Assembly (NCBI GenBank): GCA_965228475.1
Contig: OZ245817.1
Span: 2,880,001 to 2,944,000 of the forward strand
Length of the DNA: 64,000 bases
Direction of reading: 5' to 3'
Source of the DNA: Myxococcota bacterium
Lineage (GTDB): Bacteria; Myxococcota_A; UBA9160; JAFDDA01
Shown here piece after piece: positions 22,397 to 57,097 of the stretch. How positions within the stretch are numbered: position 1 is the stretch's first letter; each line of letters starts with the position of its first letter. Both the position numbers and the translations under genes were made by a program. The notes under the pieces were generated by a model. The model made no database searches. It was not told where the DNA came from and saw only the letters and a program-made list of their open reading frames with translations.

Positions 22397-23191
22397 CTAG
22401 CGCCCGGTGAACTCGGGCTTGCGTTTCTCGAAGATGGCCTTCACGGCCTCGCGGCCGTCCTCGCTGCGCAGGGCCTGCCTCGCGAGGTCGAGCTCCATCC
22501 GCAGGTGATCTTCCAGGTCCTCGATCAAGCCGGCCCGCGCCACCAGACGCTTGGTCTGCCGGGCGGCGAGCGGCGCGACCTCGGCGAGCCTGCCGCAGTA
22601 GGCACGAAACGCGTCCGCGAACCGGCTCTCGGGCACGACTTCACCCACCAGTCCGAGCGCGAGGGCCGTCTCCGCGTCGTTCATCCTGGGCTCGAGGAGA
22701 AAGCGCATCGCGCGCTCGCGCCCGATCGCCTCGGGAAGCGTGAAGGAGAGCCCGCAATCCGGGGAAGCGCCGGCGCGCGCGTAGCCCGGATGGAAGCGTG
22801 CAGCCGCGCTGGCGATCCGCATGTCCGCGCACATCGCGAGGGAGAGACCCGCGCCGATCGCGATGCCGTTGACGCCGGCGACGACGGGCTTCTCGCAGTC
22901 GATGCGCAGGCCCCGCACGAGGCGGACGACCTGCTCGGTTCCGTCCCGGTCCGACGAGGCGTCGGGCGCCGGTTGCGGCGAGAGATCCGCCCCGGAACAG
23001 AAGGCATCACCGGCACCGGTGAGGCCGACGACACGGACCGCGGCGTCCTCGGCGGCCGCCACGATGCCTTCGACGATCGCATCGATGAGCTCGGCCGAGA
23101 GCGCGTTCTTCCTCGCGGGCCGGTTCATCGTCAGGATCCGCACGTGCCCGAGGTTCTCTTCGAGCAGCACCGCTTCCGTGGAATCGCTCAT
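22397..23191 (-). CDS. Enoyl-CoA hydratase/isomerase
   Basis: NRPARKNAL, FCSGADL, KPVVAGVNG.AIGAG, EKRKPEFTGR. ATG overlaps the upstream stop. Confidence 0.9.
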   Translation of the reverse strand: MSDSTEAVLLEENLGHVRILTMNRPARKNALSAELIDAIVEGIVAAAEDAAVRVVGLTGAGDAFCSGADLSPQPAPDASSDRDGTEQVVRLVRGLRIDCEKPVVAGVNGIAIGAGLSLAMCADMRIASAAARFHPGYARAGASPDCGLSFTLPEAIGRERAMRFLLEPRMNDAETALALGLVGEVVPESRFADAFRAYCGRLAEVAPLAARQTKRLVARAGLIEDLEDHLRMELDLARQALRSEDGREAVKAIFEKRKPEFTGR

Positions 23192-24240
23192 GCACCCTCC
23201 CGATCGCGACACCCCGTGAGTTCCGACATCAGCTCCATCGCCTCGGGCTGGAGGTTCGCGAGGATCAAGCCCGTCGCACCGGAGCGCTCCCACTCCGGGT
23301 AGCGCTCGCGGATGCGCTGGACGGGGCCCACCAGGGACGACTCGTCGCAGTACTCGTCGGGGACGGCATCGATGGCCTCGCGCTTGCGTCCGGCGAGGTA
23401 GAGCTCCTGGATCTTCGCTGCCGCTTCCGGGTAGCCCCGGCGAACCATCATGTCGTTGTGGAAGTTCTTGTCGCGGTGCCCCATGCCACCGACGTAGAGC
23501 GCAATGCCCGGCTTCATGCGCGCGAGGCTGCCCCGGACGTCGTCCGTGACGCGGACGGAGACCATGGGTTGGATCTCGAAGTCCGGGAAGCCCTTCCCCG
23601 TACCCGCACGCCGGAAGCCCGCCTCGAGCCACGGACGGTAGAGCTCCATCATGCCGGGCACGAAGGCGAGCGGAAACCAGCCGTCGGCGATCTCGGCCGT
23701 GAGCCGCACGTTGCTCTCGCTCCCGGTGCCGAGCCAGATCGGGATGTCCGGGTTCATGTGGAGGATCGACTTCAGCGGCTTGCCGATCCCCAGGGAACCC
23801 TCGCCGGTGTAGGGCAGTGAGATCTCCCTGCCCTCGTGGGACACCGGCTCCTCTCGCTCGAAGATCTTGCGCATGATCGAGACGTAGTCGCGGATGCGCC
23901 AGTACGGCCGCCCCCAGGGCTGCCCGTACCAGCCTTCGACGATCTGTGGCCCGCTCACGCCGAGCCCGGCGATGAAGCGGTTGCCGCCGGCGAGCGCGTC
24001 GATGGTCGCCGCCTGCATCGCCGCCATGGCCGGCGTGCGCCCGGCCAGCTGCATGATCGCCGTGCCGAGCCGGATGCGCTCCGTCACCGCGGCCAGATAC
24101 GCGAGCGGCGAGGTGGCATCGGAGCCGTACGCCTCGGCCGTCCAGACCGAATCGAACCCGAGCGCCTCGGCGCGCATCACGAGCTCGACCGGGAGCGCCA
24201 GCTCGGCCCCCGAGTACCCGAGCATCAGACCGAGCTTCAC
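23188..24240 (-). CDS. LLM class oxidoreductase, probably F420-dependent
   Basis: GFDSVWTAEAYGSD, RLGTAIMQ..GRTP, GLGVSGPQIVEGWYG, ADGW, LYVGGMG...NFH. Confidence 0.88.
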   Translation of the reverse strand: MKLGLMLGYSGAELALPVELVMRAEALGFDSVWTAEAYGSDATSPLAYLAAVTERIRLGTAIMQLAGRTPAMAAMQAATIDALAGGNRFIAGLGVSGPQIVEGWYGQPWGRPYWRIRDYVSIMRKIFEREEPVSHEGREISLPYTGEGSLGIGKPLKSILHMNPDIPIWLGTGSESNVRLTAEIADGWFPLAFVPGMMELYRPWLEAGFRRAGTGKGFPDFEIQPMVSVRVTDDVRGSLARMKPGIALYVGGMGHRDKNFHNDMMVRRGYPEAAAKIQELYLAGRKREAIDAVPDEYCDESSLVGPVQRIRERYPEWERSGATGLILANLQPEAMELMSELTGCRDREGA

Positions 24241-25505
24241 GGCCGCGCCTCGCCGCTCACCCGATAGCGCAGCGGCAGCTTCTTCAAACCCACTACGAAG
24301 CTCGAATGGATCCGCTCCGGCTCACCGGCCAGTTCGACCGAATCGAGGCGCCGCACCAGCTCGGCGAGAAGCGCCCGCTGGGAGCGGCGCGCCAGGTGGG
24401 CACCCAGACAGAAGTGCTGACCGATCCCGAACGCCAGGTGCGGGTTCGGGTGACGATCGACGCGGAAGCTCGAGGGATCCTCGAAGACGGCCTCGTCGCG
24501 GTTCGCCGAACCGTAGAAGAGCACGAGGTTGTCCCCCTTGCGAAGCTTCTGGCCGCGGAAGTCGGCGTCGTGGCCGACGACACGCTTCATGTAGTTCACC
24601 GGCGAGACGTAGCGCAGGATCTCCTCGACTGCGCTCGGAACCAGTTCCGGGCGTCGCTTCAGCTTCTCGAACTCCTCGGGATGCTCGGCCAGGGCGTGGA
24701 GCCCACCGACCAGCGCGTTCTTCGTCGTGTCGTGGCCCGCCGTGAAGACGATCAAGAAGTAGCCGAGGGTTTCGAGCGGTGGCATCGGCTCGCCGTTCAC
24801 ACGGCCGTTCGCGAGCACGGTCGCCAGATCGTCGCGTGGGTTCGCCCGTCGGTCCGCGATGATTTCGTTGAAGAGCTTCAGGAAGTCGACGGCAAGGCCC
24901 TTCGCCGCGGCCAGGCGATCCTCCCCCTCGCGCTGGAGATCCGGATCGTCCGAGGCGAAGAGCTGATTGGTCAGTTCGAGAAGCTCGGGCTCCCGCTCCC
25001 GCGGCAGACCGAGGATCGTCGAGAGGATACGCAGCGGGTGCTGCGCCGCGATCTCGTTCGCGAACTCGCACTCCCCCTCCCCTCCAGCCGCGCGCTCGAC
25101 CAGCCGGTCCACGAGCCCGCGGGCGCTCTCCTTCGCGATCGGATCCACGCGCTCGATGGCCCGGGGCGTGAACCAGGACGAGGCGACCTTCCGGTAGTCG
25201 CGGTGCTCGGGCGGGTCCATGACGAGAATCGCGCGCAGGTTCCCGAGCCCGGACTCGGCCTCGAGAATCGTCCGCTGCTGTCTGCTCTCGAGCACGATGC
25301 CCTTGCGGTTCCAGAAGAGGTCCGGCCGCTTCGAGATCTCGCAAATGTCACGGTGGCGTACCACGGCGTGAAAAGCGTCGTAGCCCTCGGGCTCGAAGCG
25401 TTGCAAGCGATCACGCTGGCGAAGCCGCGCCCAGGCGCCGTGAGGAGTCCCCCGCGCGGCGTAGGCGCGCGGCGCGATGAGGTCCCGGCCATCGATCTCG
25501 GTCAC
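24237..25505 (-). CDS. Cytochrome P450
   Basis: MDPPEH, AGHDTT, EEILR, SANRDE, FGIGQHFCLG. Confidence 0.93.
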   Translation of the reverse strand: MTEIDGRDLIAPRAYAARGTPHGAWARLRQRDRLQRFEPEGYDAFHAVVRHRDICEISKRPDLFWNRKGIVLESRQQRTILEAESGLGNLRAILVMDPPEHRDYRKVASSWFTPRAIERVDPIAKESARGLVDRLVERAAGGEGECEFANEIAAQHPLRILSTILGLPREREPELLELTNQLFASDDPDLQREGEDRLAAAKGLAVDFLKLFNEIIADRRANPRDDLATVLANGRVNGEPMPPLETLGYFLIVFTAGHDTTKNALVGGLHALAEHPEEFEKLKRRPELVPSAVEEILRYVSPVNYMKRVVGHDADFRGQKLRKGDNLVLFYGSANRDEAVFEDPSSFRVDRHPNPHLAFGIGQHFCLGAHLARRSQRALLAELVRRLDSVELAGEPERIHSSFVVGLKKLPLRYRVSGEARP

Positions 25506-27915: not shown

Positions 27916-28638
27916 ATGGACCCGACCCAGGCCCGCTACTCGGGGGAGCCGACCCGCAACCCCTTCCGCTACGCGCGCGCCGCGTGGCGACTCATCCGCA
28001 ACGACCCTGCCGAGACCACGGACGAGGCCGCCATCATCGAGATCGGATTCGCCCGTTCCCGATTCGGCCGGCGCTTCGCGCGCTGGGAGCAGACCCTCGC
28101 GCACCTGAAGCGCGACCCGCGCACGGCGGCGGCGATGGAGGCACGCCGGGTCTTCGAACCGATCGACCTCGCCGCCCTCGAGCGGCTGCCGGCGGGCACG
28201 CTCGGCCGCGTCTTCGCGGAACACTGCCGAACGCGCGAGATCGACCCGAACCTCATCCACGTCCCGCCCGACGACGAGGTCGGCTGGTTCCTGAATCACC
28301 TCTACCGAACCCACGACGTCTGGCACGTCGTGACCGGCTGGGGAAACGACCTCCCCGGCGAAGTGGGCCTCGGCGCCTTCTACGCCGCGCAGCTCGGCTC
28401 CCCGCCGTTCTTCGGGTACATGTCGGCGCTGATCTTCTTGAACGTGATCTCGCGCCGAGCGGATCTCGACGGGGTCTTCGCCGCTTTCAGTGCCGGCTAT
28501 CGGATGGGAAAGACCTGCGAGCCGCTTTTCGGCGTCGCGTGGGACGAGCTGTGGGATGGGCCGATGAGCGACATCCGTGCCCGGTTCACGACCGACCGGT
28601 CGCAGGTCGTCGGCGAGGGGATCCTGCATGCCGCCTGA
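27916..28638 (+). CDS. Coq4 family protein
   Basis: LERLPAGTLG and the Coq4 metal motif HDxxH...E (THDVWHVVTGW...GEVGL.AF..AQ). Confidence 0.82.
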   Translation: MDPTQARYSGEPTRNPFRYARAAWRLIRNDPAETTDEAAIIEIGFARSRFGRRFARWEQTLAHLKRDPRTAAAMEARRVFEPIDLAALERLPAGTLGRVFAEHCRTREIDPNLIHVPPDDEVGWFLNHLYRTHDVWHVVTGWGNDLPGEVGLGAFYAAQLGSPPFFGYMSALIFLNVISRRADLDGVFAAFSAGYRMGKTCEPLFGVAWDELWDGPMSDIRARFTTDRSQVVGEGILHAA

Positions 28639-29512
28639 GCTCGCGACGCTCCCGGAAGCCCCCGAACCGGCGCCGATGGCAAGAGAGGCCGTGGTTCCGC
28701 GCCGTTTCATCGGCCCGCCCGACTCGGCGTGGAATCCGACGCTCTCCCTGATGCTCGGGTGCGTCCTCGGTTTCCTCGCCATGGCCTTCGCGATGCGGGG
28801 CGCTCACCTGCCCGCGTGGATCGCCATCGCAGGGCTCGCCGTCTCCTACTACGTCGTCTTCACCGTCCTGCACGACGCCATGCACGGCGTCGCTCACCGG
28901 AACCGCACCGTCAACGCGTGGCTCGGCCGGGTCGCGGGCTTCGCGTTGATGCTGCCGTACCCGCTCTTCCGCGCGGCGCACCTGGCCCACCACACCCACA
29001 CGAACGACCCCGAGCGCGACCCGGACATCATGGTCGCCTACCGCCCGGCGTGGCTCCGGCCGGTGTGGTTCCTCCTGACGCCCGCCCACTACCGGCGAAT
29101 CGTCTATGGCACGGGGCCCCTGCGAGACGCGGCCGCGCGCCGCGAAGCCTTCGCCACCGAAGCGCTGCTCCTCGCGAGCATGGGCGCCGCCGTGGCGCTC
29201 GGGCACGGCATGACGCTCCTGCAGCTCTGGGTGATCCCCGCCGTCCTGGCCATCCTCTGGCTCGCCCTCGCCTTCGATCTGCTGCCGCACCACCCTCACA
29301 CGACCCGCGAGCGCTACTACGACACGCGCGCCTACCCCGGGCGCTTCCTGAACGCCGTACTGCTCGGCCAGAACTACCACCTGGTCCATCACCTCTGGAC
29401 GACGATCCCGTGGTACCGCTACCGCCACGCCTACCGAGAGGTCGAGGCCGACCTCCTCTCGCGCGGCGCCCCGATCGGATGGGGACGCCTCGCAGAGCGG
29501 CCGCCCGGTTGA
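28628..29512 (+). CDS. Membrane fatty acid desaturase / carotenoid hydroxylase-like di-iron enzyme
   Basis: His boxes HDAMH, HLAHH, PHHP and NYHLVHH; TNDPERDPD; hydrophobic segments. Confidence 0.88.
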   Translation: MPPELATLPEAPEPAPMAREAVVPRRFIGPPDSAWNPTLSLMLGCVLGFLAMAFAMRGAHLPAWIAIAGLAVSYYVVFTVLHDAMHGVAHRNRTVNAWLGRVAGFALMLPYPLFRAAHLAHHTHTNDPERDPDIMVAYRPAWLRPVWFLLTPAHYRRIVYGTGPLRDAAARREAFATEALLLASMGAAVALGHGMTLLQLWVIPAVLAILWLALAFDLLPHHPHTTRERYYDTRAYPGRFLNAVLLGQNYHLVHHLWTTIPWYRYRHAYREVEADLLSRGAPIGWGRLAERPPG

Positions 29513-30832: not shown

Positions 30833-33778
30833 GTGCGTCGCGCTCCCCTCCTGCTCGCCGCGGTCCTCGCCCTCCTGTCCGCCAGCGCCGCGGCGGATTC
30901 CCGCCCCAAGCTGGTCTCGCCGGATGCGGGGCGATTCCGGGTCGGCGGATACGTCGAACAGCAGCTCCGGGCCCTGGCGGACGGCTTCGACATGGACCGG
31001 GGCTACCTGAGCCAATGGGCGTGGGTGCTCGACGTCGAGCCGGAGTTCGAGATCGCGCCCGACGGCTGGGGACCCTTCGACAGTCTCTCCGCCTTCGCCC
31101 GCATCGAGGCGCGCTACGAGTGCGTCTTCACGGGCTGCGGCAGCACGACCTGGCAGCACTTCGGCAACCGCGCGCGCCGGGCCCCCGCGCGCAACTGGGC
31201 CGATGCCGAGACCGAGCGCTTCGTCGGCGGCATCGGGCTTGCGGGCGTCGGCGTGGGACAGCGCGACGTCCACACCAACGCGCTGAAGCTCCTCGATGCC
31301 ACCTTCACACCGCGCTTCGAGCGCTTCTTCGACGTCGGGATCCCGCGCTCGACGGTACGCTCGGCGCTCGGCCCCCTCGGCGACGACCGCTTCGCCTTCA
31401 AGCGCATCGACGGGCCCCGCGAGGGTCTCGCCCTCCCCCTCGGGCCGTGGAACCCCTCGTCGGAGATCGAATCCGTCTCCCCTCTCGCCGGCCGACCGTC
31501 GTCGACGCTCGCCCTGCCCCTGCGGCCCTCCACCGGCGACCTCTACACGCCGAGCGCCGCGCTACTTCGCCGGATCGACGAGTTCGACGACTTCGACCAG
31601 AACTTCCGGCAGAGCGATCTCGAGTGGAACCACGGGGCGAGCCAGGACGAGTACGAGTTGAAGGAGGCGTACATCGACGCCGAGCTGTTCGACGGCCGGC
31701 TCTGGATCCGGGCGGGCAAGCAGAACGTCGTCTGGGGGAAGACCGAGCTCTTCCGCACCACCGACCAGATGAACCCGATCGACATCGGGCTCGCCTCACT
31801 CCCGAGCCTCGAGGAGAGCCGCGTAGCGCTCTGGGCGTTCCGGGCGACCTGGTCGGCCTACGAGATCGGCCCTCTCGAAGACGTGCGGCTCGAAGTGGCG
31901 GTGAACCTCGACGACTTCGAACCCATCGACACCGGACGGTGCGGGGAACCCTATACCGTGTGGCTCATCTGCGCGAAGTCGACGGGACTCTGGGCACACG
32001 GCGCACTCGGAGCGGGCATTGCCGGCGAGATCAAACCCCCGGACCCCTGGGACGACATCGCCGGCCTCGAGTTCGGCGCGCGCATCGAGTTCCGATGGGG
32101 GCGGTTCAGCGTCGCCATCACGGACTTCTACGGCTTCGACGACGTCCCCGCGATCGAGCTCTTCAACGAGTACGAGCGCAAGGTCGACCCGCAGACCGGG
32201 CGGCCCCTCGCCGGCGACGGTTCCCGTCTCACGGCCTCGAACGCACTCCTGGGTGCTGCGGCCAACCGGCAGGGATTCGACGTCGGCTGCGCCGCGAGCC
32301 AGGGCTTTGGCCAACGCGCCCTGCTCGCCCTCGTCGGCGGGAGCGGCATCGTCCCGGACATCAGCGACCGCTGCCTCGGTGACGTCGTGAACCTGCGCGA
32401 CCCGGTCACGCTGATCACGAACCTGCTCGGCCCACCGATCGGCATCGTGGGCGAGGTCCCGAACGTGATCGGGGCCGTTCTCGCTGGCCAGACCGCCGGC
32501 AACCTCATCCTCGAGGGCGCCCTGAACGGACTCGATGCAGCCCTGATCTCCTTCGTCGGCATGACCCTCCCCCAGCGCCTGGCGCCGCTCAACCGGGACG
32601 CCGCGAGCGACGGCGCCCTCGGCGGCGGCCTCTTCGGCACGAACTGCCCGGGCGGCGCGATCGGCCTGGTGCTCTGCCCCGCGCTCTCGGACGACAACCT
32701 GAGCTTCTACCTGAGCGACGCCCAGGAAGCCCTGCTCGGCTGCGGGCCCTTCTACGGGACGGACTGCGACGTCCAAGGCATCGACTTCTTCCACACCGAA
32801 GCGAGCGTCCTGCTCCAGGCGGTACCCGGCTTCGAGGACAACCCGGTCGCCACGCGCTTCGTCGACGGGCGGCTCGTGATGCTCCCCGGCTCGCGCGGCC
32901 CGGGCGACCCGGGCTACGACGTGCGGGTCGACGGAACCCCCCCGGCCGGTTTCCGGAGCGAGATGGCCGCGGTCTCCTTCAACGCGATGCAGGCCATTGC
33001 CGTCCTCGGCATCGCCGAGGGCGACACCGCCTGCAACCTGCTCGACGTCTCCACCTGCGCGGCCGTGCGCGCCTTCGTCGCCCTGACCGGCTCCCAGCGG
33101 CCAGAGCTCCGTTCCGGCGGCAACGGCGCCTACGGACGCCGCGACTTCACCTGGCACGGCGGCGGCCAGGCGCTGATCCGCTACGACCGGCGGAACGTCT
33201 TCGGGGTCTCCTTCGATTTCCCGGAGGACCGCACGAAGAGCAACTGGAGCTTCGAATTCACCTGGGTCGAAGACCAGACCTTCGCGAGCAACACGTCCGA
33301 AGACCTGCTCCAGAAGGCCGACGTGCTGAATCTCACGATCTCCGCCGACCGGCCGACCTTCGTGAACTTCCTCAATGCCAACCGGACGATCTTCCTGAAC
33401 TCCCAGGTCTTCTTCCGCTACATCCCCGACCACGACTCGAGCTTCGACACGAACGGGCCACTCTCGATCCTTGCCACGCTTGCCATCGTGACGGGCTACT
33501 ACCAGGACCGGCTGCTGCCCGCCCTCGTCCTCGTGCACGACTTCTGGTCGGCCTCGGGCGGCGCGATCTTCCAGACCACCTACCGGATCAACGAGGCCTT
33601 CTCGATCACGGCGGGGCTCCTCGCCTTCTACGGGAAGCCCGAGAACAACCGCATCCCGCGCCACCCGATCCAGCTCTTCGACACCCAGACCGAGTTCGAC
33701 GTCGGGACCCGCTTCGACGGTCTCTCGGCGATCTCGGAGCGGGACGAGATCTTCCTGACGCTCCGCTATACGTTCTGA
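30833..33778 (+). CDS. DUF1302 family outer-membrane protein with large Cys-containing insertions
   Basis: Signal peptide; ELKEAYID, RAGKQNVVWGKTELFRTTD.NP.D; C-terminal aromatic beta-strand LRYTF; adjacent to DUF1329. Confidence 0.72.
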   Translation: MRRAPLLLAAVLALLSASAAADSRPKLVSPDAGRFRVGGYVEQQLRALADGFDMDRGYLSQWAWVLDVEPEFEIAPDGWGPFDSLSAFARIEARYECVFTGCGSTTWQHFGNRARRAPARNWADAETERFVGGIGLAGVGVGQRDVHTNALKLLDATFTPRFERFFDVGIPRSTVRSALGPLGDDRFAFKRIDGPREGLALPLGPWNPSSEIESVSPLAGRPSSTLALPLRPSTGDLYTPSAALLRRIDEFDDFDQNFRQSDLEWNHGASQDEYELKEAYIDAELFDGRLWIRAGKQNVVWGKTELFRTTDQMNPIDIGLASLPSLEESRVALWAFRATWSAYEIGPLEDVRLEVAVNLDDFEPIDTGRCGEPYTVWLICAKSTGLWAHGALGAGIAGEIKPPDPWDDIAGLEFGARIEFRWGRFSVAITDFYGFDDVPAIELFNEYERKVDPQTGRPLAGDGSRLTASNALLGAAANRQGFDVGCAASQGFGQRALLALVGGSGIVPDISDRCLGDVVNLRDPVTLITNLLGPPIGIVGEVPNVIGAVLAGQTAGNLILEGALNGLDAALISFVGMTLPQRLAPLNRDAASDGALGGGLFGTNCPGGAIGLVLCPALSDDNLSFYLSDAQEALLGCGPFYGTDCDVQGIDFFHTEASVLLQAVPGFEDNPVATRFVDGRLVMLPGSRGPGDPGYDVRVDGTPPAGFRSEMAAVSFNAMQAIAVLGIAEGDTACNLLDVSTCAAVRAFVALTGSQRPELRSGGNGAYGRRDFTWHGGGQALIRYDRRNVFGVSFDFPEDRTKSNWSFEFTWVEDQTFASNTSEDLLQKADVLNLTISADRPTFVNFLNANRTIFLNSQVFFRYIPDHDSSFDTNGPLSILATLAIVTGYYQDRLLPALVLVHDFWSASGGAIFQTTYRINEAFSITAGLLAFYGKPENNRIPRHPIQLFDTQTEFDVGTRFDGLSAISERDEIFLTLRYTF

Positions 33779-33799: not shown

Positions 33800-34783
33800 A
33801 TGAGCGTCAACGAAGCAGAGCCATCGGATCCTCGCCTCGAACCCCGCCTGCGCCCGCTGCTGGCCATCTTCGGCCGGCTGCGGGACGACCCGGACGCCAA
33901 CATGGCCACGCTCCGCGAGCAGGGCGCGAGGCTGAACCGCGCGGCCGGCTGGCTGCTCGTCCGGCACGGGCCCCGCGACGTCGAGACCTCGGAGGTCTCG
34001 GCTCCGGTCGACGGCGGAGAGATCCGCATCCGCATCTACCGTCCGCGTTCGACCGCCGGCCAGCGCCTTCCGCTCTACGTCTTCCTGCACGGCGGTGGCT
34101 GGTGCGTCGGCAACCTCGACGAACGCGACCCCCGGTGCCGGACCATCGCGGCCGAAGCCCGCTGCGTCGTCGCCTCGGTCGACTACCGGCTGGCGCCCGA
34201 GAACCGCTACCCCGTTCCCCTCGAGGACTGCTACGCCGCGCTCTGCTGGCTCGCCGGAAACGGCGACCGTTTCGAGATCGATCCAACGCGGATCGCGATC
34301 GGTGGGGAATCCGCGGGCGGGAACCTCGCCGCTGCGGTGTGCCTTCTCGCGCGGAATCGGTCGGGCCCGGCGCTGTGCCACCAATGGCTGGACGTCCCGT
34401 CGGTGGATGCGACGTGTACGCAGGAAGGGTTCGCCAACGTCGAGGACGGCTACATGCTCGACACCGCGATGATCGACCGCTTCCTCGCGTGCTACCTCGA
34501 CGACGCCCAGGATCGCAGGGACCCCCTCGTCTCGCCGCTGTTCGCGGCGGACCACTCGGGCCTCCCGCCGGCCTTCATCACCACCTGCGAGTTCGACCAC
34601 CTGCGCGGAGACGGCGCCGCCTACGCCGAGGTCTTGACCAAGGCCGGCGTCGCCGCGGAGCACGCTCGCCTGGCGGGCCACATCCACGCCTCCTTCGCGC
34701 TCACCCGCCTGCTTCCGTCGGCGCGCGCGCACGAAGAGCGAGCGATCGAGGCGCTCGCAGCGGCCTTCCGCCGCGCCGCCTGA
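33800..34783 (+). CDS. Alpha/beta hydrolase, HSL (family IV) esterase
   Basis: HGGGW, VDYRLAPE, GESAGG, FD.LR, H. Confidence 0.92.
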   Translation: MSVNEAEPSDPRLEPRLRPLLAIFGRLRDDPDANMATLREQGARLNRAAGWLLVRHGPRDVETSEVSAPVDGGEIRIRIYRPRSTAGQRLPLYVFLHGGGWCVGNLDERDPRCRTIAAEARCVVASVDYRLAPENRYPVPLEDCYAALCWLAGNGDRFEIDPTRIAIGGESAGGNLAAAVCLLARNRSGPALCHQWLDVPSVDATCTQEGFANVEDGYMLDTAMIDRFLACYLDDAQDRRDPLVSPLFAADHSGLPPAFITTCEFDHLRGDGAAYAEVLTKAGVAAEHARLAGHIHASFALTRLLPSARAHEERAIEALAAAFRRAA

Positions 34784-34787
34784 CGGC

Positions 34788-34991
34788 TCAGTCGATCGGG
34801 CGGTCCCAATCGGCCGGGTGGTCGAGCTCCGGGTCCGGCTCGGCGTCTCCACCGAGCTGCCGCTCGAGCATCTTCTTGGCAAGACCATCGAGGCCCGTGG
34901 TCCGGGTCGTCATGGCCCGCCGCGCCAGCCGGGTCAACAGCTCGACCTTCAGCTCGCGCACGCGCTGATCCCGCTCGCTGCGAATCGTCAT
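34788..34991 (-). CDS. Small hypothetical protein (67 aa), coupled to the upstream oxidoreductase
   Basis: ATGA overlap with the stop at 34988; helical-looking sequence MTIRSERDQRVRELKVELL...; fills the gap to the convergent esterase. Confidence 0.6.
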   Translation of the reverse strand: MTIRSERDQRVRELKVELLTRLARRAMTTRTTGLDGLAKKMLERQLGGDAEPDPELDHPADWDRPID

Positions 34992-37213
34992 TGCGCCCCC
35001 AGGGTCGTCGCGGACATGCCCTCGGGCGGGTCGCAAGGCACGAGCCTTCCCGGGTAGCCCTTGAAGTGCGGGATCCCCTGCTCGCGGTCGAGCAGCTCGT
35101 CGGTGTCGACGGTGAGGACGGCATCCGAGGAAACGAAGGCACCGGCGAGATCGAGATTCCCGCGGGTTTCCGGGTACCACCAGCCGTGCGGGACCCGCAC
35201 GTGGCCCGGCCGCATCCCGGCCTGCACGCTGACCTTGGCGTGGACGTGGCCGTGCTCGGTTTCGAGCCGCGCCCACGCGCCGTCGACGAGCCCCTCGCGC
35301 GCGGCGTCCTCGGGATGGACGTAGAAGTGCGGAGCCGGCTGGCGTCGGCGCAAGACGCCGACGTTGCGCTGCCCGGTCTGGAAGAACGGGTCCTCGCGCA
35401 CCCCCGAGAACACGAGGTAGGGGTACTCCGCGGTCGGCGCCGGCGCGGGCCGGTGATAGGGAAGCGGGTCGAAGCCGAGGTCCGCGAGGATCGAAGAAGA
35501 GAGCTCGACCTTGCCCGACGGCGTCGCGAAGCCCTTCTTGCGGTACTTGCGGAACTTCGGGACCGGCAGGTCCATCACGGTCGTCTCGCGGAACTCCTTC
35601 CAGGTGCGCCCGGAGGGCTCGAGCCGATGGTCGTGGAGCGCCTCGGCCGTCTCCCAGGGGAAATGCGCGCCGAGGCCCATCCGGTGGGCGAGATCCGTCC
35701 AGAACCGGAAGGTCGAGCTCGCCTCCTCGGGCGCCTCCGCAACGGCCTCCGAGAGGGCCAGGCGGTCGCTCCAGGCCCAGGTGTCGGCGATGTGGTTGCG
35801 TTCGCTGAATACGTCGCCCGGCAGCACGTAGTCGGCGAGCATCGCCGTCGGCGTCATGAAGATCTCGTGGGCGACGATCAGGTCCTGGTTCATCAGCGCG
35901 CGGCGGATCTGATGCTGGTTCGGGTACGAGAGCAGCGTGTTGTTGCCGAGCGTGAAGAAGGCCTTCACCGGGTACGGGTCCCCGTCCGCCATCGCGCGGA
36001 AGACCTCGGTCGGGTTGGCCATGTGGCAGCCCATGACCTGGTCGACCCACGGCTCGCCCCAGACGCGCTCGAGGTGGGGCTTCAGGATCTCCGCCGTCCG
36101 GTAGGTGTAGACCGGGTGCTTCTCGTAGCCGAGCTGCTTCTTGCGCTGCTCGGGCGAGATCACGTCGTGGAGCTGGAGCTCCGCCTCGCTGCGCCAATCG
36201 TCACGAAGCCCGTGCAGGAGCTCGCCGCCCACGACGTCGAGGTTCCCGGTGATCGCACGAAGGATCGATTGCAGGCGGATCCCCGAGGTCGAGTCGAGCT
36301 GCTGGTCGGTGATCGGGGTCCAGGGAATGACGGCGCCGTCGGCATTCGCGTAGATGCGCGCGGCCTCGGCGATCTTCTCCGCGTCGACGCCGGTGATCTC
36401 GGCGACCCGCTCGAGGGGGTACTCGTCGACGCGCTCGGCGAGCTCCTTGAAGCCGACGCACCAATCGCGGACGAAGTCCTTGTCGTAGAGCCCCTCGTCG
36501 ATGATCACCTTGGTCATGCCGAGCAGCAGCGCGGCGTCCGTTCCGGCGCGGATCTGCAGGTGGAGCGTCGCGCGCTCGGCCTGCTCCGAGACCCGGGGGT
36601 CGACGACGATCGTCTTGGCGCCGCGCTTCCGGGCCGCTTCGATCATGTTGTAGATCGGCGTCCAGGAGTGCTTGCGCGGATTGTGGCCGAGCAGGAGGAT
36701 GCAGTTCGAGGCGGCGATGTCGGGGAACGGCATCCAGCCGTAGGTCAGGCGGTTCACCGCGGCGGTGTTGCCCGCGCAGAGCGCCACGCCCGAAATCCAG
36801 TTGGGCGCGCCGAGCAGGTTCATGAGCCGCCGATCGAGGCCGTAGGTGGTCTGGGTGTTCCAGCCCGAGGTCGAGACGGCGAAGGCCTCCGCGCCGTGGG
36901 CATCGATCACGCCGCGGAGGCGCTCGGCGATCTCGTCCATCGCCTGCTCGTAGGAGATCTCCTCCCAGCGGTCCTCACCGCGGGCGCCGACGCGCTTCAG
37001 CGGCACGCGCAGGCGGTCGGCATGGTTGTGGACGTGCGGCGCGGCCGTCCCCTTGTAACAGACGTTCTTCGCGAGCACGGGCGAGTCGTGGGCTCGCATC
37101 CGCTCGAGCCGTCCATCGACGGACTCGGCGCGCAGCTGGCAGCCGATGTCGCAGATCGAGCAGACGGTGTAGCCGGTTCGCCGCTCGGAGCCGTTGGCGT
37201 GCGGTGCGGTCAT
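34988..37213 (-). CDS. Mo/W bis-PGD enzyme, acetylene hydratase-like
   Basis: CSICDIGC...CYKG [4Fe-4S] motif with Asp next to Cys, NW.S...CAGN, IPW...DQ, MANPT, ADYVLPGD, ATPSGKVEL, VRED, PHGWW, LD.EQG.P; collinear with acetylene hydratase as I recall it. Confidence 0.85.
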   Translation of the reverse strand: MTAPHANGSERRTGYTVCSICDIGCQLRAESVDGRLERMRAHDSPVLAKNVCYKGTAAPHVHNHADRLRVPLKRVGARGEDRWEEISYEQAMDEIAERLRGVIDAHGAEAFAVSTSGWNTQTTYGLDRRLMNLLGAPNWISGVALCAGNTAAVNRLTYGWMPFPDIAASNCILLLGHNPRKHSWTPIYNMIEAARKRGAKTIVVDPRVSEQAERATLHLQIRAGTDAALLLGMTKVIIDEGLYDKDFVRDWCVGFKELAERVDEYPLERVAEITGVDAEKIAEAARIYANADGAVIPWTPITDQQLDSTSGIRLQSILRAITGNLDVVGGELLHGLRDDWRSEAELQLHDVISPEQRKKQLGYEKHPVYTYRTAEILKPHLERVWGEPWVDQVMGCHMANPTEVFRAMADGDPYPVKAFFTLGNNTLLSYPNQHQIRRALMNQDLIVAHEIFMTPTAMLADYVLPGDVFSERNHIADTWAWSDRLALSEAVAEAPEEASSTFRFWTDLAHRMGLGAHFPWETAEALHDHRLEPSGRTWKEFRETTVMDLPVPKFRKYRKKGFATPSGKVELSSSILADLGFDPLPYHRPAPAPTAEYPYLVFSGVREDPFFQTGQRNVGVLRRRQPAPHFYVHPEDAAREGLVDGAWARLETEHGHVHAKVSVQAGMRPGHVRVPHGWWYPETRGNLDLAGAFVSSDAVLTVDTDELLDREQGIPHFKGYPGRLVPCDPPEGMSATTLGAQ

Positions 37214-37809
37214 CGCGGGGTCTCCCCTTCTCGCCCGATCCGGGCGTCGTGTTCGTGAGCCAGGCGCAGGAGCTGCTCGAGGACGCGCGCCTCGTGTCCC
37301 ACCGGGCCGCCGCTCGTCGCGCGGCCGAGCGCGAGGCCGAGCATCGTCTCCCGCGCCAGCAGGACGAAGGTTTGCGCGGGCTCGTCGACCAGCACATCCG
37401 GGCGCGTCTCGGGGGAGACGAGCTTCGCGAAGCGTTCGACCACCGGCCCGATCGAGGCCCCGAGCGCCGGATCGTTCGCCGCCGCGAGCCAGGCCTCGAT
37501 CACGACCTTGAAATCGATCGTCGTCATCGTCTCCCAGGTCGTGGTCACGAGATCCGTGACGCTGGCGGGCGACGGCCGGGCCGCCGCCGCGGCCGAGAGC
37601 GCGGCGTAGCGATGCTCGAGGGCGGCGGCGAAGAGCCCCGGCAGCCCCTGGAAGTGGTGGACGAAGGCGCCGCGGGTCAGGCCGGCCCGGCCGCAGACGG
37701 CCACCGAGGTGACGCCTCCCCAGCCGCTTTCGACCAGAAGCTCGAGGGTCGCCCGAATGAGGGCTTCTCTCGTGCCCGCAGAACGCTCGGCCTGGGTTCG
37801 TCTCGCCAT
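37210..37809 (-). CDS. TetR/AcrR family regulator
   Basis: RRTQAERS..TREALI.AT, RAGLTRGAFVHHF; stop overlaps the oxidoreductase start. Confidence 0.88.
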   Translation of the reverse strand: MARRTQAERSAGTREALIRATLELLVESGWGGVTSVAVCGRAGLTRGAFVHHFQGLPGLFAAALEHRYAALSAAAAARPSPASVTDLVTTTWETMTTIDFKVVIEAWLAAANDPALGASIGPVVERFAKLVSPETRPDVLVDEPAQTFVLLARETMLGLALGRATSGGPVGHEARVLEQLLRLAHEHDARIGREGETPR

Positions 37810-37830
37810 GGAGGGAACCCTAGCATAATT

Positions 37831-37844
37831 ATTCATCGATGTAT
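37831..37844. promoter_or_regulatory. Candidate TetR operator
   Basis: Imperfect palindrome ATTCATCGATGTAT in an AT-rich divergent intergenic region. Confidence 0.45.
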
Positions 37845-37873
37845 GTATCTTTCTACCCTGCTATCGTGAGGCC

Positions 37874-38569
37874 GTGCCCGGCGGCTTCGCGCGGCTGAGG
37901 GGCGAACACGCCCTCGCCGTCTACATCGATCTCAAGAGTCCCTACGCCTACCTCGCGATCGACCCGACGCGGGCCATGGCCGCGCGCCTCGGCGTACCGA
38001 TCGACTGGCGCCCCTTCACCCTCGACATCCCGAGCTATCTCGGCTCCGCCAAGCTCGCCAAGGGCGGCCGCAAGGTCGAGAAGGCGGAGCGCAGTGCGAC
38101 CCAGTGGTCGGGCGTGAAGTACGCCTACATGGACGCCCGCCGCTACGCGAACCTCACCGGCAAGACGGTGCGCGGCACGGTGAAGATCTGGGATTCGAAC
38201 CTCGCCGGGATCGCCATGCTCTGGGCGAAGCGGCACGGCGCCGAAGCGCTCGACCGCGTGCTCGACGCGGCCTACCCGGTGTTCTGGCGCCGCGAGCTCG
38301 ACATCGAAGACCTCGCCGTCCTCGAGGGCGTGCTCACCGCGGCGCGCGTTCCGCTCGACGGTTTCCGCCCCTACGTCGAGGGCGAAGGCCGCACGGAGCA
38401 CGACGCCCTGAACGAGGCCGCGTTCGATGCGGGGGTCTACGGCGTACCGACCTACCTCGCCGGGGACGAGGCCTGGTTCGGCCGGGAGCACCTTCCGCGG
38501 GTGTCCTGGCTCCTGGCGGGCCGTCCGGGGCCCCCGCCCGACGTCGCCAATCGGAGCTTCGCCCCGTGA
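37874..38569 (+). CDS. DsbA-fold HCCA isomerase / kappa-GST-like protein
   Basis: YIDLKSPYAYLA, W.PF.LD, GVYGVPTY....WFGREHLP. Confidence 0.82.
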   Translation: MPGGFARLRGEHALAVYIDLKSPYAYLAIDPTRAMAARLGVPIDWRPFTLDIPSYLGSAKLAKGGRKVEKAERSATQWSGVKYAYMDARRYANLTGKTVRGTVKIWDSNLAGIAMLWAKRHGAEALDRVLDAAYPVFWRRELDIEDLAVLEGVLTAARVPLDGFRPYVEGEGRTEHDALNEAAFDAGVYGVPTYLAGDEAWFGREHLPRVSWLLAGRPGPPPDVANRSFAP

Positions 38570-39210
38570 GCTTCGGGGATCGCATCGACGCGTCCACGCT
38601 GACCGTGCTGCTCGACGTGCGCCAGCCGCTCGCGTACCTGGCGCTCGGGCCCGCGGCGGCTTTCGGCGACGAGCGCGGCGTCGCGATCAACTGGCTCCCC
38701 TTCGCGGTACCGCCGCTTCGCGCGCCGAGCGAGCCCGGCCCGGACGACGACCGCAGCACCCGCCACCGCCGAAACCGAGCGCGAATGATCGCGCGGGAGA
38801 TCGAGACCTACGCCGCAGCGCAGGGGCTCACGCTACGCGAGTACTACCGGGACGGCGGAGCGACCGCCGTCGAGCTCGGTTGGCTCTGGATGCGTGAGCA
38901 CGCACCGCGGCAGCTCGTTCCCTTCCTCTCGGAGGTGTTCCGGGCCTACTGGGCCGTCGAGCTCGACCCGGAGGACATCGCTGCCGTCGCGCGCGTGGTC
39001 GGCGCGGAAGGCGGCGACGCCGACGCCTTCGCCGCATGGGCCGCCGAAGACGGGCCGGAGCACACGCGCCGCCTTCGGGAAGCGCTGCGCGAGCGCGGCG
39101 TCAGCGGAGCACCGAGCTACCTCGTCGAGGGCGAATACTTTCAGGGGAGGCAGCACCTCCCGATGATCGGCTGGATCCTCGACGGCCGGAACGGCCCGGG
39201 ACCGATCTGA
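38566..39210 (+). CDS. DsbA-fold HCCA isomerase-like protein, second paralogue
   Basis: LLDVRQPLAYLA, WLPF, GVSGAPSY....FQGRQHLP; GTGA overlap. Confidence 0.78.
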   Translation: MSFGDRIDASTLTVLLDVRQPLAYLALGPAAAFGDERGVAINWLPFAVPPLRAPSEPGPDDDRSTRHRRNRARMIAREIETYAAAQGLTLREYYRDGGATAVELGWLWMREHAPRQLVPFLSEVFRAYWAVELDPEDIAAVARVVGAEGGDADAFAAWAAEDGPEHTRRLREALRERGVSGAPSYLVEGEYFQGRQHLPMIGWILDGRNGPGPI

Positions 39211-47818: not shown

Positions 47819-48706
47819 TCAGCGCGGCGTCGCCATGATCGCGTCGATCAGCGTGATCAGCCGATGGATCGCGGGCCCGAGCGTCCAGACGAGGATTCCC
47901 GGCAGGAAGCCCGAGACCAGGGGAAACACGAGCTTCTCGGGCAGGGCTTCGGCGCGTGCGAGGGCGCGCTCGCGGGCCCGGCGCGCCAGGTCGTCCGCGA
48001 TGTTCCGCACGATCTCGACCAGACCGGCCCCGGCCTCCTCCGCCTGGATCCACGCCGAGACGAAGCTCCGGATCGCGTCGACTTCCGTCCGGGTGGCCTG
48101 CCGCCGCATCGCCGTCGAGCGGTTTTCGCCCGCGCGGATCTCGTTCTGGACCCGCGCGAACTCCCGAACGAGGGGCCGGTCCGGCGTGGCCGAGACGTAG
48201 CGTTCGAGCGCGGCTTCGAACCCCATCCCCGACTCGGCCAGCGTCGCCAGCGTCTCGAGGGCGGGCGGCAGGTCCCGCTCGAGGGAAGCCACGCGCTCGC
48301 GACGGGCGGCCCTCACGCGAAGCGCCGGCACCGAAGCGATGCCCAACGCGACGAGGACCGGCGCGAAGGCGACGAAGTAGGACAGCGCCGTCCCGAAGAC
48401 GGGGATCGTCCGGGCCTGCCACTGGAGCCCGGTCGCCATCGCACTCGCTCCCCAGGCCCAGGCGATCGCCACGCCCAGGAACAGGGCGATGCCCTGCCGA
48501 ACCGAGAAACGGCGGACGGCGTCCTCGCCCTCGTAGCCGGCCAGGGCGAGCCAGTGCGCGAGGCGCGAGCTCCGGGGCGTCGAGACATCCTTCTCCCAGA
48601 GCCGGGCTTCCGCCCCGCGGCTCCGCTCGGTCCACCACGCGAGGCCCGCGGCGCCGACGATCAGCAGCAGCCCGAACAGCAGGGTGAGGAAGTCCAGGGC
48701 CGACAT
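47819..48706 (-). CDS. tadC: Tad inner-membrane platform protein TadC (T2SS F family)
   Basis: LP.ALE.LA...ESGMGFEAAL, E.RAG..R..A, EKLVFPLV..FLP. Confidence 0.82.
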   Translation of the reverse strand: MSALDFLTLLFGLLLIVGAAGLAWWTERSRGAEARLWEKDVSTPRSSRLAHWLALAGYEGEDAVRRFSVRQGIALFLGVAIAWAWGASAMATGLQWQARTIPVFGTALSYFVAFAPVLVALGIASVPALRVRAARRERVASLERDLPPALETLATLAESGMGFEAALERYVSATPDRPLVREFARVQNEIRAGENRSTAMRRQATRTEVDAIRSFVSAWIQAEEAGAGLVEIVRNIADDLARRARERALARAEALPEKLVFPLVSGFLPGILVWTLGPAIHRLITLIDAIMATPR

Positions 48707-49557
48707 CAGACGGTGATCCTGGAGATGCGCCACATCCAGAGGAGTGAGAGCGCCTGCACGAGCAGGGTTCCGCCGACGAGCCCCTCCCCGACCCCGCTCG
48801 CCAGGAACGAAGCGATGCCGGGCGGATCGTTCAGCCAGACGACCACGGCGATCGCCAGGTTCGCGGCCATGAGCACGAGGACGGAGCCTCGGGTCGGCGC
48901 CGCCTGGGATTCGATGCGCCGCAGGACGTCGGCCCGGTCGCGTACCGAGCGCGAGACCACCGCGAGGCTCCGCGAGAGCTGGCCGCCGGCGTGCCACTGG
49001 ATCGCGAGGCAGAGCGCGAGCAAGCGGAACGATTCGAGGGGGACTTCCTGTGTCAGGCGAGCCGTGGCCTCGGAGGGGTTCTCTCCGGTGGCCAGGCGAC
49101 CCGTCATGTCGGAGAGCAGGCGGCGCAAGGGTTCGCGCGCGTCGCGTGCCGCTCGCTGGAACGCATCGAGCGGGCTGGCACCGGACCGGAGGGCCGAGGT
49201 GACGAGGTCGAGCGCGTCGGCCAGACCCTCTTCGAGTGCGAGCGCGGCCCGGTCGACGCGCGCGCGGTGGGCGATGAACGCGAGCGCCCCCACCACGGCG
49301 CCCAACCCCAGACCGACCACCACCTGAGCCAGGGCGACGACGGCGATGGCCCCGGCGCCGGCCCCGACGAGCAACCCGACCTGGATGCTGCGCTGACCGG
49401 CGAGCGAGCCGGCGACGGGTTCGGGCGAATCGGCGTCGTCGGGACGGCTGTGCAGCCGCTGCGCCGCCCGGGAGCGCTGCTGCCAGGCGCGGGCAGCCGC
49501 TCCCGAGACCGCCAGAACCCCCGCGAAGGTGAGTGCTGCGAGCCCTGCACTACTCAT
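48706..49557 (-). CDS. tadB: Tad inner-membrane platform protein TadB (T2SS F family)
   Basis: LADALDLVTSALRSG.S, GGQL..SL......VRDR; directly upstream of tadC. Confidence 0.82.
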   Translation of the reverse strand: MSSAGLAALTFAGVLAVSGAAARAWQQRSRAAQRLHSRPDDADSPEPVAGSLAGQRSIQVGLLVGAGAGAIAVVALAQVVVGLGLGAVVGALAFIAHRARVDRAALALEEGLADALDLVTSALRSGASPLDAFQRAARDAREPLRRLLSDMTGRLATGENPSEATARLTQEVPLESFRLLALCLAIQWHAGGQLSRSLAVVSRSVRDRADVLRRIESQAAPTRGSVLVLMAANLAIAVVVWLNDPPGIASFLASGVGEGLVGGTLLVQALSLLWMWRISRITV

Positions 49558-49583
49558 CCGACCCACCTCCGCCCGAACGCAAG

Positions 49584-49615
49584 AGGCGCGGCCCCTCTTC
49601 CGAGGAGCCGCGCCT
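49584..49615 (-). terminator. Strong stem-loop between the PEP-CTERM gene and tadB (terminator, attenuator or stabiliser)
   Basis: 14 bp arms with one mismatch (AGGCGCGGCCCCTC / GAGGAGCCGCGCCT) and a 4 nt loop; no clean U-tract. Confidence 0.45.
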
Positions 49616-49668
49616 GATGAAGGGCGACTGCCCGCCGCGACGGTTCGACCGGCACGGCAGGCCCCTGG

Positions 49669-50451
49669 CTAGTCGCGCTTGCGGCCGAGCGCCGCGAGGC
49701 CCGCGAAGCCGGAGAGCAGCAGCAGCAGGCTGCCCGGCTCGGGCACGAGGTTGCTCTCGACCCAGCCCTCGGCGAGTTCGAGCGCCTCTTCGAGGTCCTC
49801 TTCGTTCGCCGGCGTGAGGGTGGCGAAGAGGATGAAGAGCGAGTTCGACGGGTCGACGAAGCCGTCCGCCTGGAACACGGCCTCGACCAGGTAGATGCCC
49901 TCGGTCGCGAAGTCGGGCGTGACCGTGGCATCGCCGAGCAGCGTGAAGTCGTGGTGCTCGTGGAGCAGACCGTTGGCCGCCGTCGTGCCGAGTTCGATCC
50001 CGGTCACGGCCGCCGAGCCGTCCAGCACGGACGTGCCGCCGAAGTGCGCGATCTCGAGGACCTCGCCGTCCGGAGTCGCGCCGAAGTCCACCGCGCCGAC
50101 GCCATCCCAGTACGAAAGGCTCCGGCCCTCGTAGCCCAGGATGATGTCGAGCTCGACGTCGGTGCTGCCGGGGATGTTGTCCGCGCCGAGCGGCAGCTGC
50201 AGGGGAGCCACCGTGTCGCTGAACGAGTTCCAGCCGGGCTCGTCGCCCGAGAAGGAGCCGTCGAGCTCCGGGTCGAAGAGCTCCCCTTCGAAGATGTTCG
50301 CATCGACGAACAAGAGATCGTCGAAGTCCATGCCTCCGACGACGAGCTCGCCGCCCTGCTGGTAGACGTTCGCATCGACGTGCTGGGCCTGTGCCGATTC
50401 CGTCCCAAGGAACAACAGCGAGGCCGCCAGAGCCAAATTCAAGATCCGCAT
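49669..50451 (-). CDS. PEP-CTERM surface protein with His-motif putative metal-binding domain
   Basis: Signal peptide ending AQA then QHVD; internal LSYWDG.GAV, HEHH, GIYLV; canonical VPEPGSLLLLLSGFAGLAALGRKR tail. Confidence 0.85.
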   Translation of the reverse strand: MRILNLALAASLLFLGTESAQAQHVDANVYQQGGELVVGGMDFDDLLFVDANIFEGELFDPELDGSFSGDEPGWNSFSDTVAPLQLPLGADNIPGSTDVELDIILGYEGRSLSYWDGVGAVDFGATPDGEVLEIAHFGGTSVLDGSAAVTGIELGTTAANGLLHEHHDFTLLGDATVTPDFATEGIYLVEAVFQADGFVDPSNSLFILFATLTPANEEDLEEALELAEGWVESNLVPEPGSLLLLLSGFAGLAALGRKRD

Positions 50452-50525
50452 GATCGTGTTTTCTCCTTTTCGGTTCGGGGCCGGCCGATGGACGTACCGC
50501 CACGATGCCCCTTCCCGAAAACTCC

Positions 50526-50551
50526 AGTGCCGCTCGGGCGCCGACGGTTCC
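50526..50551 (-). promoter_or_regulatory. Candidate ECF sigma promoter, copy 1
   Basis: GGAACC-N14-GGCACT on the minus strand upstream of the PEP-CTERM gene. Confidence 0.6.
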
Positions 50552-50563
50552 ATGGCACGCCGA

Positions 50564-51682: not shown

Positions 51683-51704
51683 CCAGTACCTCCCTCCGCG
51701 CTCG

Positions 51705-51722
51705 TGTGCGCACTTGTGCACA
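51705..51722. promoter_or_regulatory. Palindromic/tandem element in the divergent control region
   Basis: TGTGCGCA-ct-TGTGCACA, both an imperfect inverted repeat and a 10 bp-period direct repeat. Confidence 0.35.
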
Positions 51723-51739
51723 GGTCCGTGCGGTGAGGT

Positions 51740-51765
51740 AGTGCCGGCCGGCCCCGAAGGGTTCC
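51740..51765 (-). promoter_or_regulatory. Candidate ECF sigma promoter, copy 2
   Basis: GGAACC-N14-GGCACT on the minus strand upstream of the CGLG-anchored gene; both hexamers and the spacing are identical to copy 1. Confidence 0.6.
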
Positions 51766-51839
51766 CGTCGATCCCCGCTTTTCTCGTCAGAACGAGGCCC
51801 CCTAGACCGATCGGAACGCATCGAGTAGGGTCGGCGCTC

Positions 51840-52163: not shown

Positions 52164-52178
52164 TACCTGGGCTGTGGC

Positions 52179-52198
52179 AGGGACGCACCTGCGTCCCT
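52179..52198 (+). promoter_or_regulatory. Perfect inverted repeat between the RAPP ORF and the ECF gene
   Basis: AGGGACGCA-cc-TGCGTCCCT, beginning 15 nt after the RAPP ORF stop. Confidence 0.55.
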
Positions 52199-52231
52199 TG
52201 GTTCCGACTTCGAACCTGCGGGCGAACCGCC

Positions 52232-54777: not shown

Positions 54778-54792
54778 CGAGAAGTGAAGACC

Positions 54793-54812: not shown

Positions 54813-54829
54813 ACCAAGGAGGAAGAAGG

Positions 54830-57094: not shown

Positions 57095-57097
57095 CCC

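Follow-up and report, generated by a model that had tools for sequence, protein, structure and literature searches.

The acetylene hydratase-like gene and its operon

The 64,000-nucleotide (nt) stretch analysed here (contig OZ245817.1 of a Myxococcota bacterium, hereafter the window) carries on its reverse strand a two-gene operon whose second gene encodes a homologue of acetylene hydratase (AH) in which the catalytic aspartate of AH is retained. The protein is referred to as P0001. The operon and its control region comprise the following features:

34988..37213, reverse strand: gene for P0001, an AH-like bis-(molybdopterin guanine dinucleotide) (bis-MGD)/[4Fe-4S] enzyme; a 741-amino acid (aa) open reading frame (ORF) with an ATG start
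37210..37836, reverse strand: gene for a TetR-family repressor, first of the two genes (PF00440, E = 1.9e-6)
37829..37846, reverse strand: operator-like palindrome ACATACATCGATGAATAA, with 3 mismatches to the family consensus ACATACATCGATGTATGT
37828..37855, reverse strand: sigma-70-like promoter (TAGAAA, 16 nt, AATAAT) preceding the TetR gene, within an AT-rich patch

The reading frame of the enzyme gene is intact across all 741 aa, and a Shine-Dalgarno-like AAGGGGAG precedes its start. The G+C content of the window is ~70% throughout; the gene has a third-position G+C (GC3) of 0.85 and the same codon-position pattern of G+C as its neighbours. Three Pfam domains were detected in P0001 (PF04879, 26.7 bits against a cut-off of 22.7; PF00384, 126.7 bits; PF01568, 66.9 bits), giving a three-part architecture of Fe4S4 domain, molybdopterin domain and MGD-binding domain. 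Since the Fe-S motif begins at residue 18, there is no room for a signal peptide, and the genomic context suggests a cytoplasmic, single-subunit enzyme that would work without an electron-transfer partner.

All seven motifs that an initial annotation of this DNA had picked out are present in the translation: CSICDIGC (residues 18-25), CYKG (52-55), NWISGVALCAGN (138-149), HSW (182-184), IPW (296-298), DTW (477-479) and VRED (605-608). Their occurrence is not a matter of chance, since AH is the best match of P0001 in the PDB. None of the NCBIfam curated models listed for P0001 reached its own cut-off. Formate dehydrogenase alpha subunit (TIGR01591), the best of these models, gave 301 bits against a cut-off of 666, and thiosulfate reductase PhsA (NF012032) gave 267 bits against 694; both identities were rejected. 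Matches in the ESM Atlas were to generic molybdopterin-oxidoreductase clusters only, and a search for longer, fused forms of P0001 found none, which is weak evidence.

Relationship to acetylene hydratase

A phmmer search with P0001 against all PDB chains gave AH (2e7z_A) as the best match (E = 5.2e-192, 643 bits), the alignment running from residues 15-719 of P0001 to 3-718 of the chain. The second PDB entry, the thiosulfate/polysulfide reductase 2vpw, scored only 205 bits. An AlphaFold2 model of P0001, built from 44 relatives, had a mean predicted local distance difference test score (pLDDT) of 91.4 and a predicted TM-score (pTM) of 0.92. The model superimposed on 2E7Z with TM-scores of 0.93/0.95, a root-mean-square deviation of 1.7 Å and 44% identity, and every other structure gave a TM-score of at most 0.81.

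To place individual residues, PDB chain numbers were taken as the literature number minus 3; the N-terminus of AH is printed as MASKKHVV-CQSCD-INC in a supplement to PMC7028382. On this numbering the cluster cysteines C18, C21, C25 and C52 of P0001 correspond to Cys9, Cys12, Cys16 and Cys46 of AH, D22 to the catalytic Asp13, I23 to Ile14 and K54 to Lys48. The metal ligand Cys141 is matched by C146, which lies inside NWISGVALCAGN, aligned to NWTSAMYMCIGN of AH, and the next residue, A147, takes the place of Ile142. W184, W298 and W479 correspond to Trp179, Trp293 and Trp472, R606 to Arg606 and F611 to Phe611. The residues that the initial annotation had listed for AH thus align to 2E7Z as it stated, the change of Ile142 to Ala included, and its identification of an AH homologue with the catalytic Asp was borne out by the scores (643 against 205 bits), the fold and the pairing of D22 with Asp13.

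According to the accessible text of a 2025 review (PMC12096430), which also names the N-terminal four-Cys [4Fe-4S] motif of AH, Asp13 is specific to the AH subfamily; the D13A variant is inactive and D13E is active. Taken together, the alignments and the predicted fold support placing P0001 in the AH subfamily of the dimethyl sulfoxide (DMSO) reductase (bis-MGD) family.

The substrate pocket

The hydrophobic ring that ends the substrate funnel of AH reportedly consists, in the 2007 structure paper, of Ile14, Ile113, Ile142, Trp179, Trp293 and Trp472. Four of these six positions are identical in P0001 (I23, W184, W298 and W479) and all six are hydrophobic; the two that differ are W118, which replaces Ile113 in an ungapped stretch bounded by conserved anchors, and A147. 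The loop before the metal-ligand Cys also differs, with G142, V143, A144 and L145 in P0001 against A137, M138, Y139 and M140 in AH. Positions in both regions (Ile113, Ile142, Ala137 and Met138) are given as active-site surroundings, along with Trp179, Trp293, Trp472 and Phe611, in the available part of PMC7970554. The residue comparison of the initial annotation was therefore correct as a mapping, and overlooked the Ile113 to Trp118 replacement and the four-residue loop difference.

Among the 120 closest relatives listed (below), W118 is present in all 120 and A147 in 119, so that the two form a fixed signature of the clade. The pair looks like a coupled swap of one bulky and one small residue that does not by itself decide the net size of the pocket. 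By tabulated residue volumes, Trp plus Ala occupy ~316 Å3 and two Ile ~333 Å3. The larger pocket that had been proposed from the Ile142 to Ala change does not follow, because one residue grew, the other shrank and the summed volumes are similar. Nor can the structural model settle the size, because it is least confident beside W118: residues 119-121 (nt ~36851-36859), immediately after it, are the only internal stretch with pLDDT below 50.

These differences bear on the chief rival reading, which we consider somewhat unlikely, in which P0001 would use the same metal-bound water and Asp to hydrate a substrate other than acetylene: a substituted terminal alkyne (such as propyne, propargyl alcohol, propiolate or a natural-product alkyne) or another small compound with a triple bond (such as a nitrile, an isonitrile or cyanide). 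The family-wide Trp at 113 and Ala at 142 and the smaller residues at 137-140 speak for it; against this, the Trp/Ala pair may keep the pocket volume, judged by the residue volumes above, and the other ring residues are unchanged.

Conservation and spread of the family

A word-indexed protein search gave 1880 proteins at E ≤ 1e-50 among 8000 scored. The best 120, which were listed, are 69-100% identical to P0001. Among their named sources are metagenome-assembled genomes of Myxococcota and Actinomycetota, Candidatus Azotimanducaceae, Sneathiella marina, Dermatobacter hominis, Ilumatobacter fluminis and a Nonomuraea. With one genome taken per species, relatives were found in 363 species-representative genomes. 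The loci around the best 80 of these 363 (L001-L080; hereafter the related loci) encode proteins 66-87% identical to P0001 and span several phyla, with Myxococcota, Acidimicrobiia/Ilumatobacteraceae, Alphaproteobacteria, Acidobacteriota and others, as well as many Gammaproteobacteria (Halieaceae, Pseudomonadales, OM182, K189A and Azotimanducaceae). As first described, the finding reads like a peculiarity of one genome; the gene belongs instead to a large family.

The four cluster cysteines, D22, K54, C146, W184, W298, R606 and F611 are kept in 120/120 relatives, W479 in 117 and I23 in 115. At 292 of the 741 positions the same residue is found in at least 118 of the 120, which indicates strong selection. 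It is barely credible that P0001 is a decaying or functionless copy: we found no point in favour of this, and the intact frame with its Shine-Dalgarno-like sequence, the GC3 shared with its neighbours, the near-invariant positions and the closeness of relatives across phyla all speak against it. In one related locus (L039, Acidimicrobiales, 7398-7955) only the C-terminal half matches, over query residues 387-738, with an integrase-core (rve) ORF immediately before it. This suggests that an insertion element has interrupted the AH-like gene there.

More distant relatives were collected by an exhaustive search of 1.84 billion representatives of 50%-identity clusters, the best 150 being listed. 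The best full-length representatives were P0121 and P0122 (both 44% identical to P0001; 636 and 633 bits), followed by P0124 (508 bits). These three score 646, 607 and 612 bits, respectively, against AH, and AH itself, at 643 bits, is at least as close to P0001 as any of the 150 listed representatives (≤636 bits). Among P0121-P0170, Asp occupies position 13 in only three of the 44 full-length representatives, namely P0121, P0122 and P0124; the others have His, Pro, Ser, Gln, Tyr or further residues there and no Trp ring.

A quick maximum-likelihood tree was calculated from 36 rows (LG+G4, with Shimodaira-Hasegawa-like approximate likelihood ratio (SH-aLRT) support only) and rooted on eight of the representatives without the Asp; AH was not included. 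The Asp-bearing proteins form a clade with a support of 99. Within it, P0121 groups with a protein of Rhodococcus opacus (support 99), and a group from Coriobacteriia is sister to the query family (support 99), which is itself a tight clade (support 100) with a long stem of 0.49 and short internal branches. By pairwise phmmer scores, AH is roughly equidistant from the groups of the tree. The family tree that had been proposed as a check thus recovers a well-supported Asp-bearing clade, with AH itself outside the 36 rows.

P0380, a 919-aa AH-like protein from a neighbouring clade that also bears the Asp, carries flavodoxin-like/FMN-reductase domains (PF02525 and PF03358, from precomputed annotation). 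These domains suggest a built-in electron source for activation or catalysis.

The repressor and its operator

The TetR gene immediately precedes the enzyme gene on the same strand, and its stop codon overlaps the start of the enzyme gene in ATGA. At its longest, the repressor ORF begins at 37836; translation more probably starts at the ATG at 37809, giving a protein of ~199 aa as in relatives. Orthologues 56-77% identical to this repressor sit directly upstream of the enzyme gene in related loci.

To count regulators, profiles built from those found by Pfam were run against stop-to-stop ORFs upstream of the enzyme gene in the 76 loci with at least 500 nt of upstream DNA. The directly upstream gene encoded a TetR-type repressor on the same strand in 26 loci, a MarR-type repressor in 16 and neither in 34. 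A Pfam scan of 44 of the 76 upstream ORFs gave 15 TetR, 12 MarR, 10 members of other families and 7 with no family. According to the accessible text of PMC7858054, a marR gene also lies upstream of the AH gene in Pelobacter sp. SFB93.

Upstream of the TetR genes, an 18-nt palindrome with the consensus ACATACATCGATGTATGT is found with at most 5 mismatches in 23 of the 24 loci that have upstream DNA; none of 964 control segments of 180 nt had fewer than 6 mismatches. The site at 37829-37846 is the best match to this consensus in the whole 64 kb. It overlies the spacer and -10 hexamer of the sigma-70-like promoter, the only promoter-like match in 34600-38000, where 0.1 is expected from shuffled sequences. 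In MarR-type loci the operator is a different one: one or two GGGTATATACCC-like palindromes were seen by eye just upstream of the MarR start (L010, L011, L028, L030-L033, L043, L047, L049, L050, L058, L063, L065 and L068), and by eye no such palindrome was seen in L057.

Conserved neighbours and electron transfer

Across the 80 related loci, the only conserved neighbour of the enzyme gene is the directly upstream repressor. A search for a conserved catabolic partner found none, the neighbour clusters being generic (SDR, FMO-like, P450, PhyH, Rieske and acyl-CoA enzymes, among others) and none of them fixed in position. No Fe-S, cytochrome or membrane-anchor subunit occurs among the 23 recurrent neighbour clusters scanned in these loci. 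The flanks of the operon in the window, a convergent esterase, a DUF1302 protein and a divergent DSBA-like gene, likewise have no consistent counterpart. Because the neighbours are otherwise generic and unfixed, the unit that recurs across phyla appears to be a ligand-sensing repressor plus one enzyme.

The 80 loci show no conserved electron-transfer gene next to that of the enzyme, which is therefore best read as a non-redox hydratase acting alone; this supports the proposal of such a hydratase in the initial annotation, whose residues align. We regard it as quite unlikely that P0001 carries out redox chemistry, as a reductive dehydroxylase or another oxidoreductase, with electrons supplied by a soluble carrier whose gene lies at some other place in the genome. 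Nearly every enzyme of the DMSO-reductase family is a redox enzyme, public records carry the names 'molybdopterin-dependent oxidoreductase' or 'anaerobic selenocysteine-containing dehydrogenase', the catechol dehydroxylases are the closest characterised relatives other than AH, and both the fused flavodoxin-like form in the neighbouring clade and a ferredoxin gene after the R. opacus homologue fit with electron input. Against this, no partner is conserved across the 80 loci, every listed NCBIfam oxidoreductase model, such as formate dehydrogenase alpha and PhsA, falls far under its cut-off, and the characterised dehydroxylases are without the Asp13 signature.

The make-up of the unit also bears on the choice of substrate. 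A repressor and an enzyme without catabolic follow-up genes resemble an inducible detoxification system more than a growth pathway, and oxygenases for xenobiotics and lipids abound in the wider neighbourhoods; both points would suit a substrate other than acetylene.

Proposed function

We lean towards the view that P0001 hydrates acetylene or a very small alkyne without redox chemistry, as AH does, and is made on demand. The reaction, its substrate, the metal, the inducer and the way the repressor acts are what we infer from the likeness to AH and the layout of the operon. The enzyme would be a Mo- or W-bis-MGD protein with one [4Fe-4S] cluster that works like AH. D22, the Asp next to the second cluster cysteine, would activate a metal-bound water, and the hydrophobic ring would hold the substrate, acetylene or a very small terminal alkyne, while the water adds to its triple bond; the enol so formed would tautomerize to the aldehyde, so that the reaction involves no net oxidation or reduction. 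The TetR protein probably binds the palindrome over its own promoter, and a ligand would release it to allow synthesis of the enzyme.

Several points weigh against this assignment. Two of the six ring residues and all four of the loop residues 137-140 differ from AH, so the pocket is reshaped. AH is absent from the tree, and membership of its clade rests on scores and signature. The fused protein P0380 implies that some members of the Asp-bearing group receive electrons. Oxygenases are encoded by the hosts of the query family, and the named host genera are ones that we take to be aerobes. PMC12096430 describes AH as very sensitive to oxygen and strictly dependent on W; it also has AH relatives as biochemically uncharacterized, and this holds for the query clade.

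A further such point is that the window ORFs scanned included neither an aldehyde dehydrogenase gene nor one for the Mo cofactor. The initial annotation had taken the lack of acetaldehyde-processing neighbours as an argument for a substrate other than acetylene. The lack is real among the scanned ORFs, but the argument is weak, because the available text of PMC7858054 names no such genes around the Pelobacter AH genes either, the surroundings it gives being Fe-S-binding proteins, transporters and a marR gene.

Other features of the window

Further features lie outside the operon:

37874-38569 (231 aa) and ~38677-39210, forward strand: two tandem DSBA-like thioredoxin-domain matches, divergent from the TetR operon; neither is kept next to the enzyme gene in other loci
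30833-33778: 981-aa ORF in which only residues 269-341 match DUF1302; not represented in the 80 related loci
11305-12906, 17241-18494, 23188-24240, 24237-25505, 28577-29512 and 61978-62865: six oxygen-dependent enzymes, given as a set

The neighbours had been described as a TetR gene and a small ORF. The TetR gene is real; no ORF could be matched to the small one, and the gene that follows on the far side is the 231-aa DSBA-like one on the opposite strand. A part for the DSBA-like gene in the system was considered and rejected, as it has no counterpart in the 80 related loci. The description 'oxygenase-rich' is apt for the window, in which the set of six comprises two P450s, an FMO/Baeyer-Villiger-like enzyme, a luciferase-like monooxygenase, TauD and a fatty-acid desaturase. 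An Rfam scan found no RNA family in the 64-kb window, and hence no molybdenum cofactor riboswitch. A PhiG-like DAPG hydrolase domain lies at 12731-13753, and a Tad/type-IV-pilus-like secretion cluster at 47819-61491 includes two T2SSF proteins, a secretin, a TadE-like protein, a T2SSE ATPase and a TPR protein.

Significance

We know of no aerobic acetylene or alkyne hydratase that has been identified, although such an enzyme has been inferred from physiology. Acetylenic compounds are mechanism-based inactivators of monooxygenases and P450s. Akob et al. (2018), writing on acetylenotrophy, are said to have surveyed AH-like genes and may already list the query clade. A literature search over titles and abstract openings returned nothing on a clade with the fixed Trp113/Ala142 signature, on its spread in oxygenase-rich bacteria or on its repressor/operator modules. 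In the accessible portion of PMC12096430, AH is given as the only known non-redox enzyme of its family, characterized from one strict anaerobe, and uncharacterized AH relatives with Cys141 and Asp13 are already in print there. The available part of PMC7858054 has no acetylene-transforming enzyme characterized from an aerobe.

A more speculative proposal, which we think unlikely, is that the query clade is an oxygen-compatible, probably Mo-using acetylene/alkyne hydratase of aerobes, carried as a mobile repressor-plus-enzyme module, that would clear acetylenic compounds from cells relying on many oxygenases. If this were true, alkyne hydration would be a common aerobic trait among marine and freshwater Myxococcota, Acidimicrobiia and Gammaproteobacteria. 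A clade with the whole catalytic apparatus allows AH chemistry in aerobes, its metal and its substrate to be tested directly, and cultured carriers (I. fluminis, S. marina, D. hominis and a Nonomuraea) make it suited to experiment. The fixed Trp113/Ala142 pair offers a natural experiment on the substrate pocket, and the conserved repressors and operators a handle on the physiological inducer.

Comparison with known systems

The bis-MGD catechol dehydroxylases are the closest characterized relatives of AH according to the accessible text of PMC7028382, whose supplements put them at 19-26% identity to AH (Cldh and Dodh at 24-26%); in Cldh and Dodh the cluster motif reads C-H where AH has C-D. 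Cldh and Dodh of Gordonibacter and Dadh of Eggerthella carry out redox chemistry, and P0001 is without their signature. A catechol dehydroxylase identity was rejected for P0001 because it is 44% identical to AH and has the C-D motif, the two being set apart through the comparison with AH and not by direct alignment.

The Coriobacteriia group (P0124 and proteins of Gordonibacter, Adlercreutzia and Raoultibacter) is 40-42% identical to P0001. Like P0001, these proteins have Asp13, Lys48, Cys141, Trp179, Trp293 and Arg606; unlike it, they have Tyr or Phe at 472, Tyr at 611 and Met at 142, and their hosts are gut or anaerobic bacteria. A Coriobacteriales gene product 46% identical to AH is the proposed hydratase of an acetylene-fed enrichment in the available text of PMC7858054 and its table S5. 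In the same material, R. opacus gives the best AH-like matches among the aerobic acetylene users compared.

A protein search of plasmids found an uncharacterized 786-aa homologue in R. opacus DSM 44186, on the 745-kb plasmid pRop44186_a (NZ_CP082159.1). We take this strain to be an acetylene-degrading isolate, for which no publication was found. The protein is 41% identical to P0001 and scores 580 bits against 2E7Z, compared with 643 for P0001. Like P0001, it keeps Asp13, Cys141, Trp179, Trp293, Trp472 and Phe611 and belongs to the Asp-bearing clade; its host is aerobic. Unlike P0001, it has Lys at 606 and Leu at 142 and groups with P0121 on a different branch. Its locus has no TetR or MarR gene, and the AH-like gene is followed by ferritin-like, fdxA (ferredoxin) and moeZ genes. 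The AH-like gene region of the plasmid (L081, 9028-15906) has IS630, IS5 and other transposases as well as integrases on its flanks, and looks like a mobile island.

The closest likeness is to AH of Syntrophotalea (Pelobacter) acetylenica (2E7Z) itself. The two proteins share their length class, three-domain fold, single subunit and lack of a signal peptide, and in both the four-Cys motif has an Asp after the second Cys and is accompanied by Lys48, Cys141, Trp179, Trp293, Trp472, Arg606 and Phe611. They differ in that the gene for P0001 is coupled to a repressor, of TetR or MarR type across its family, and in that its hosts carry many oxygenases, whereas AH comes from a strict anaerobe.

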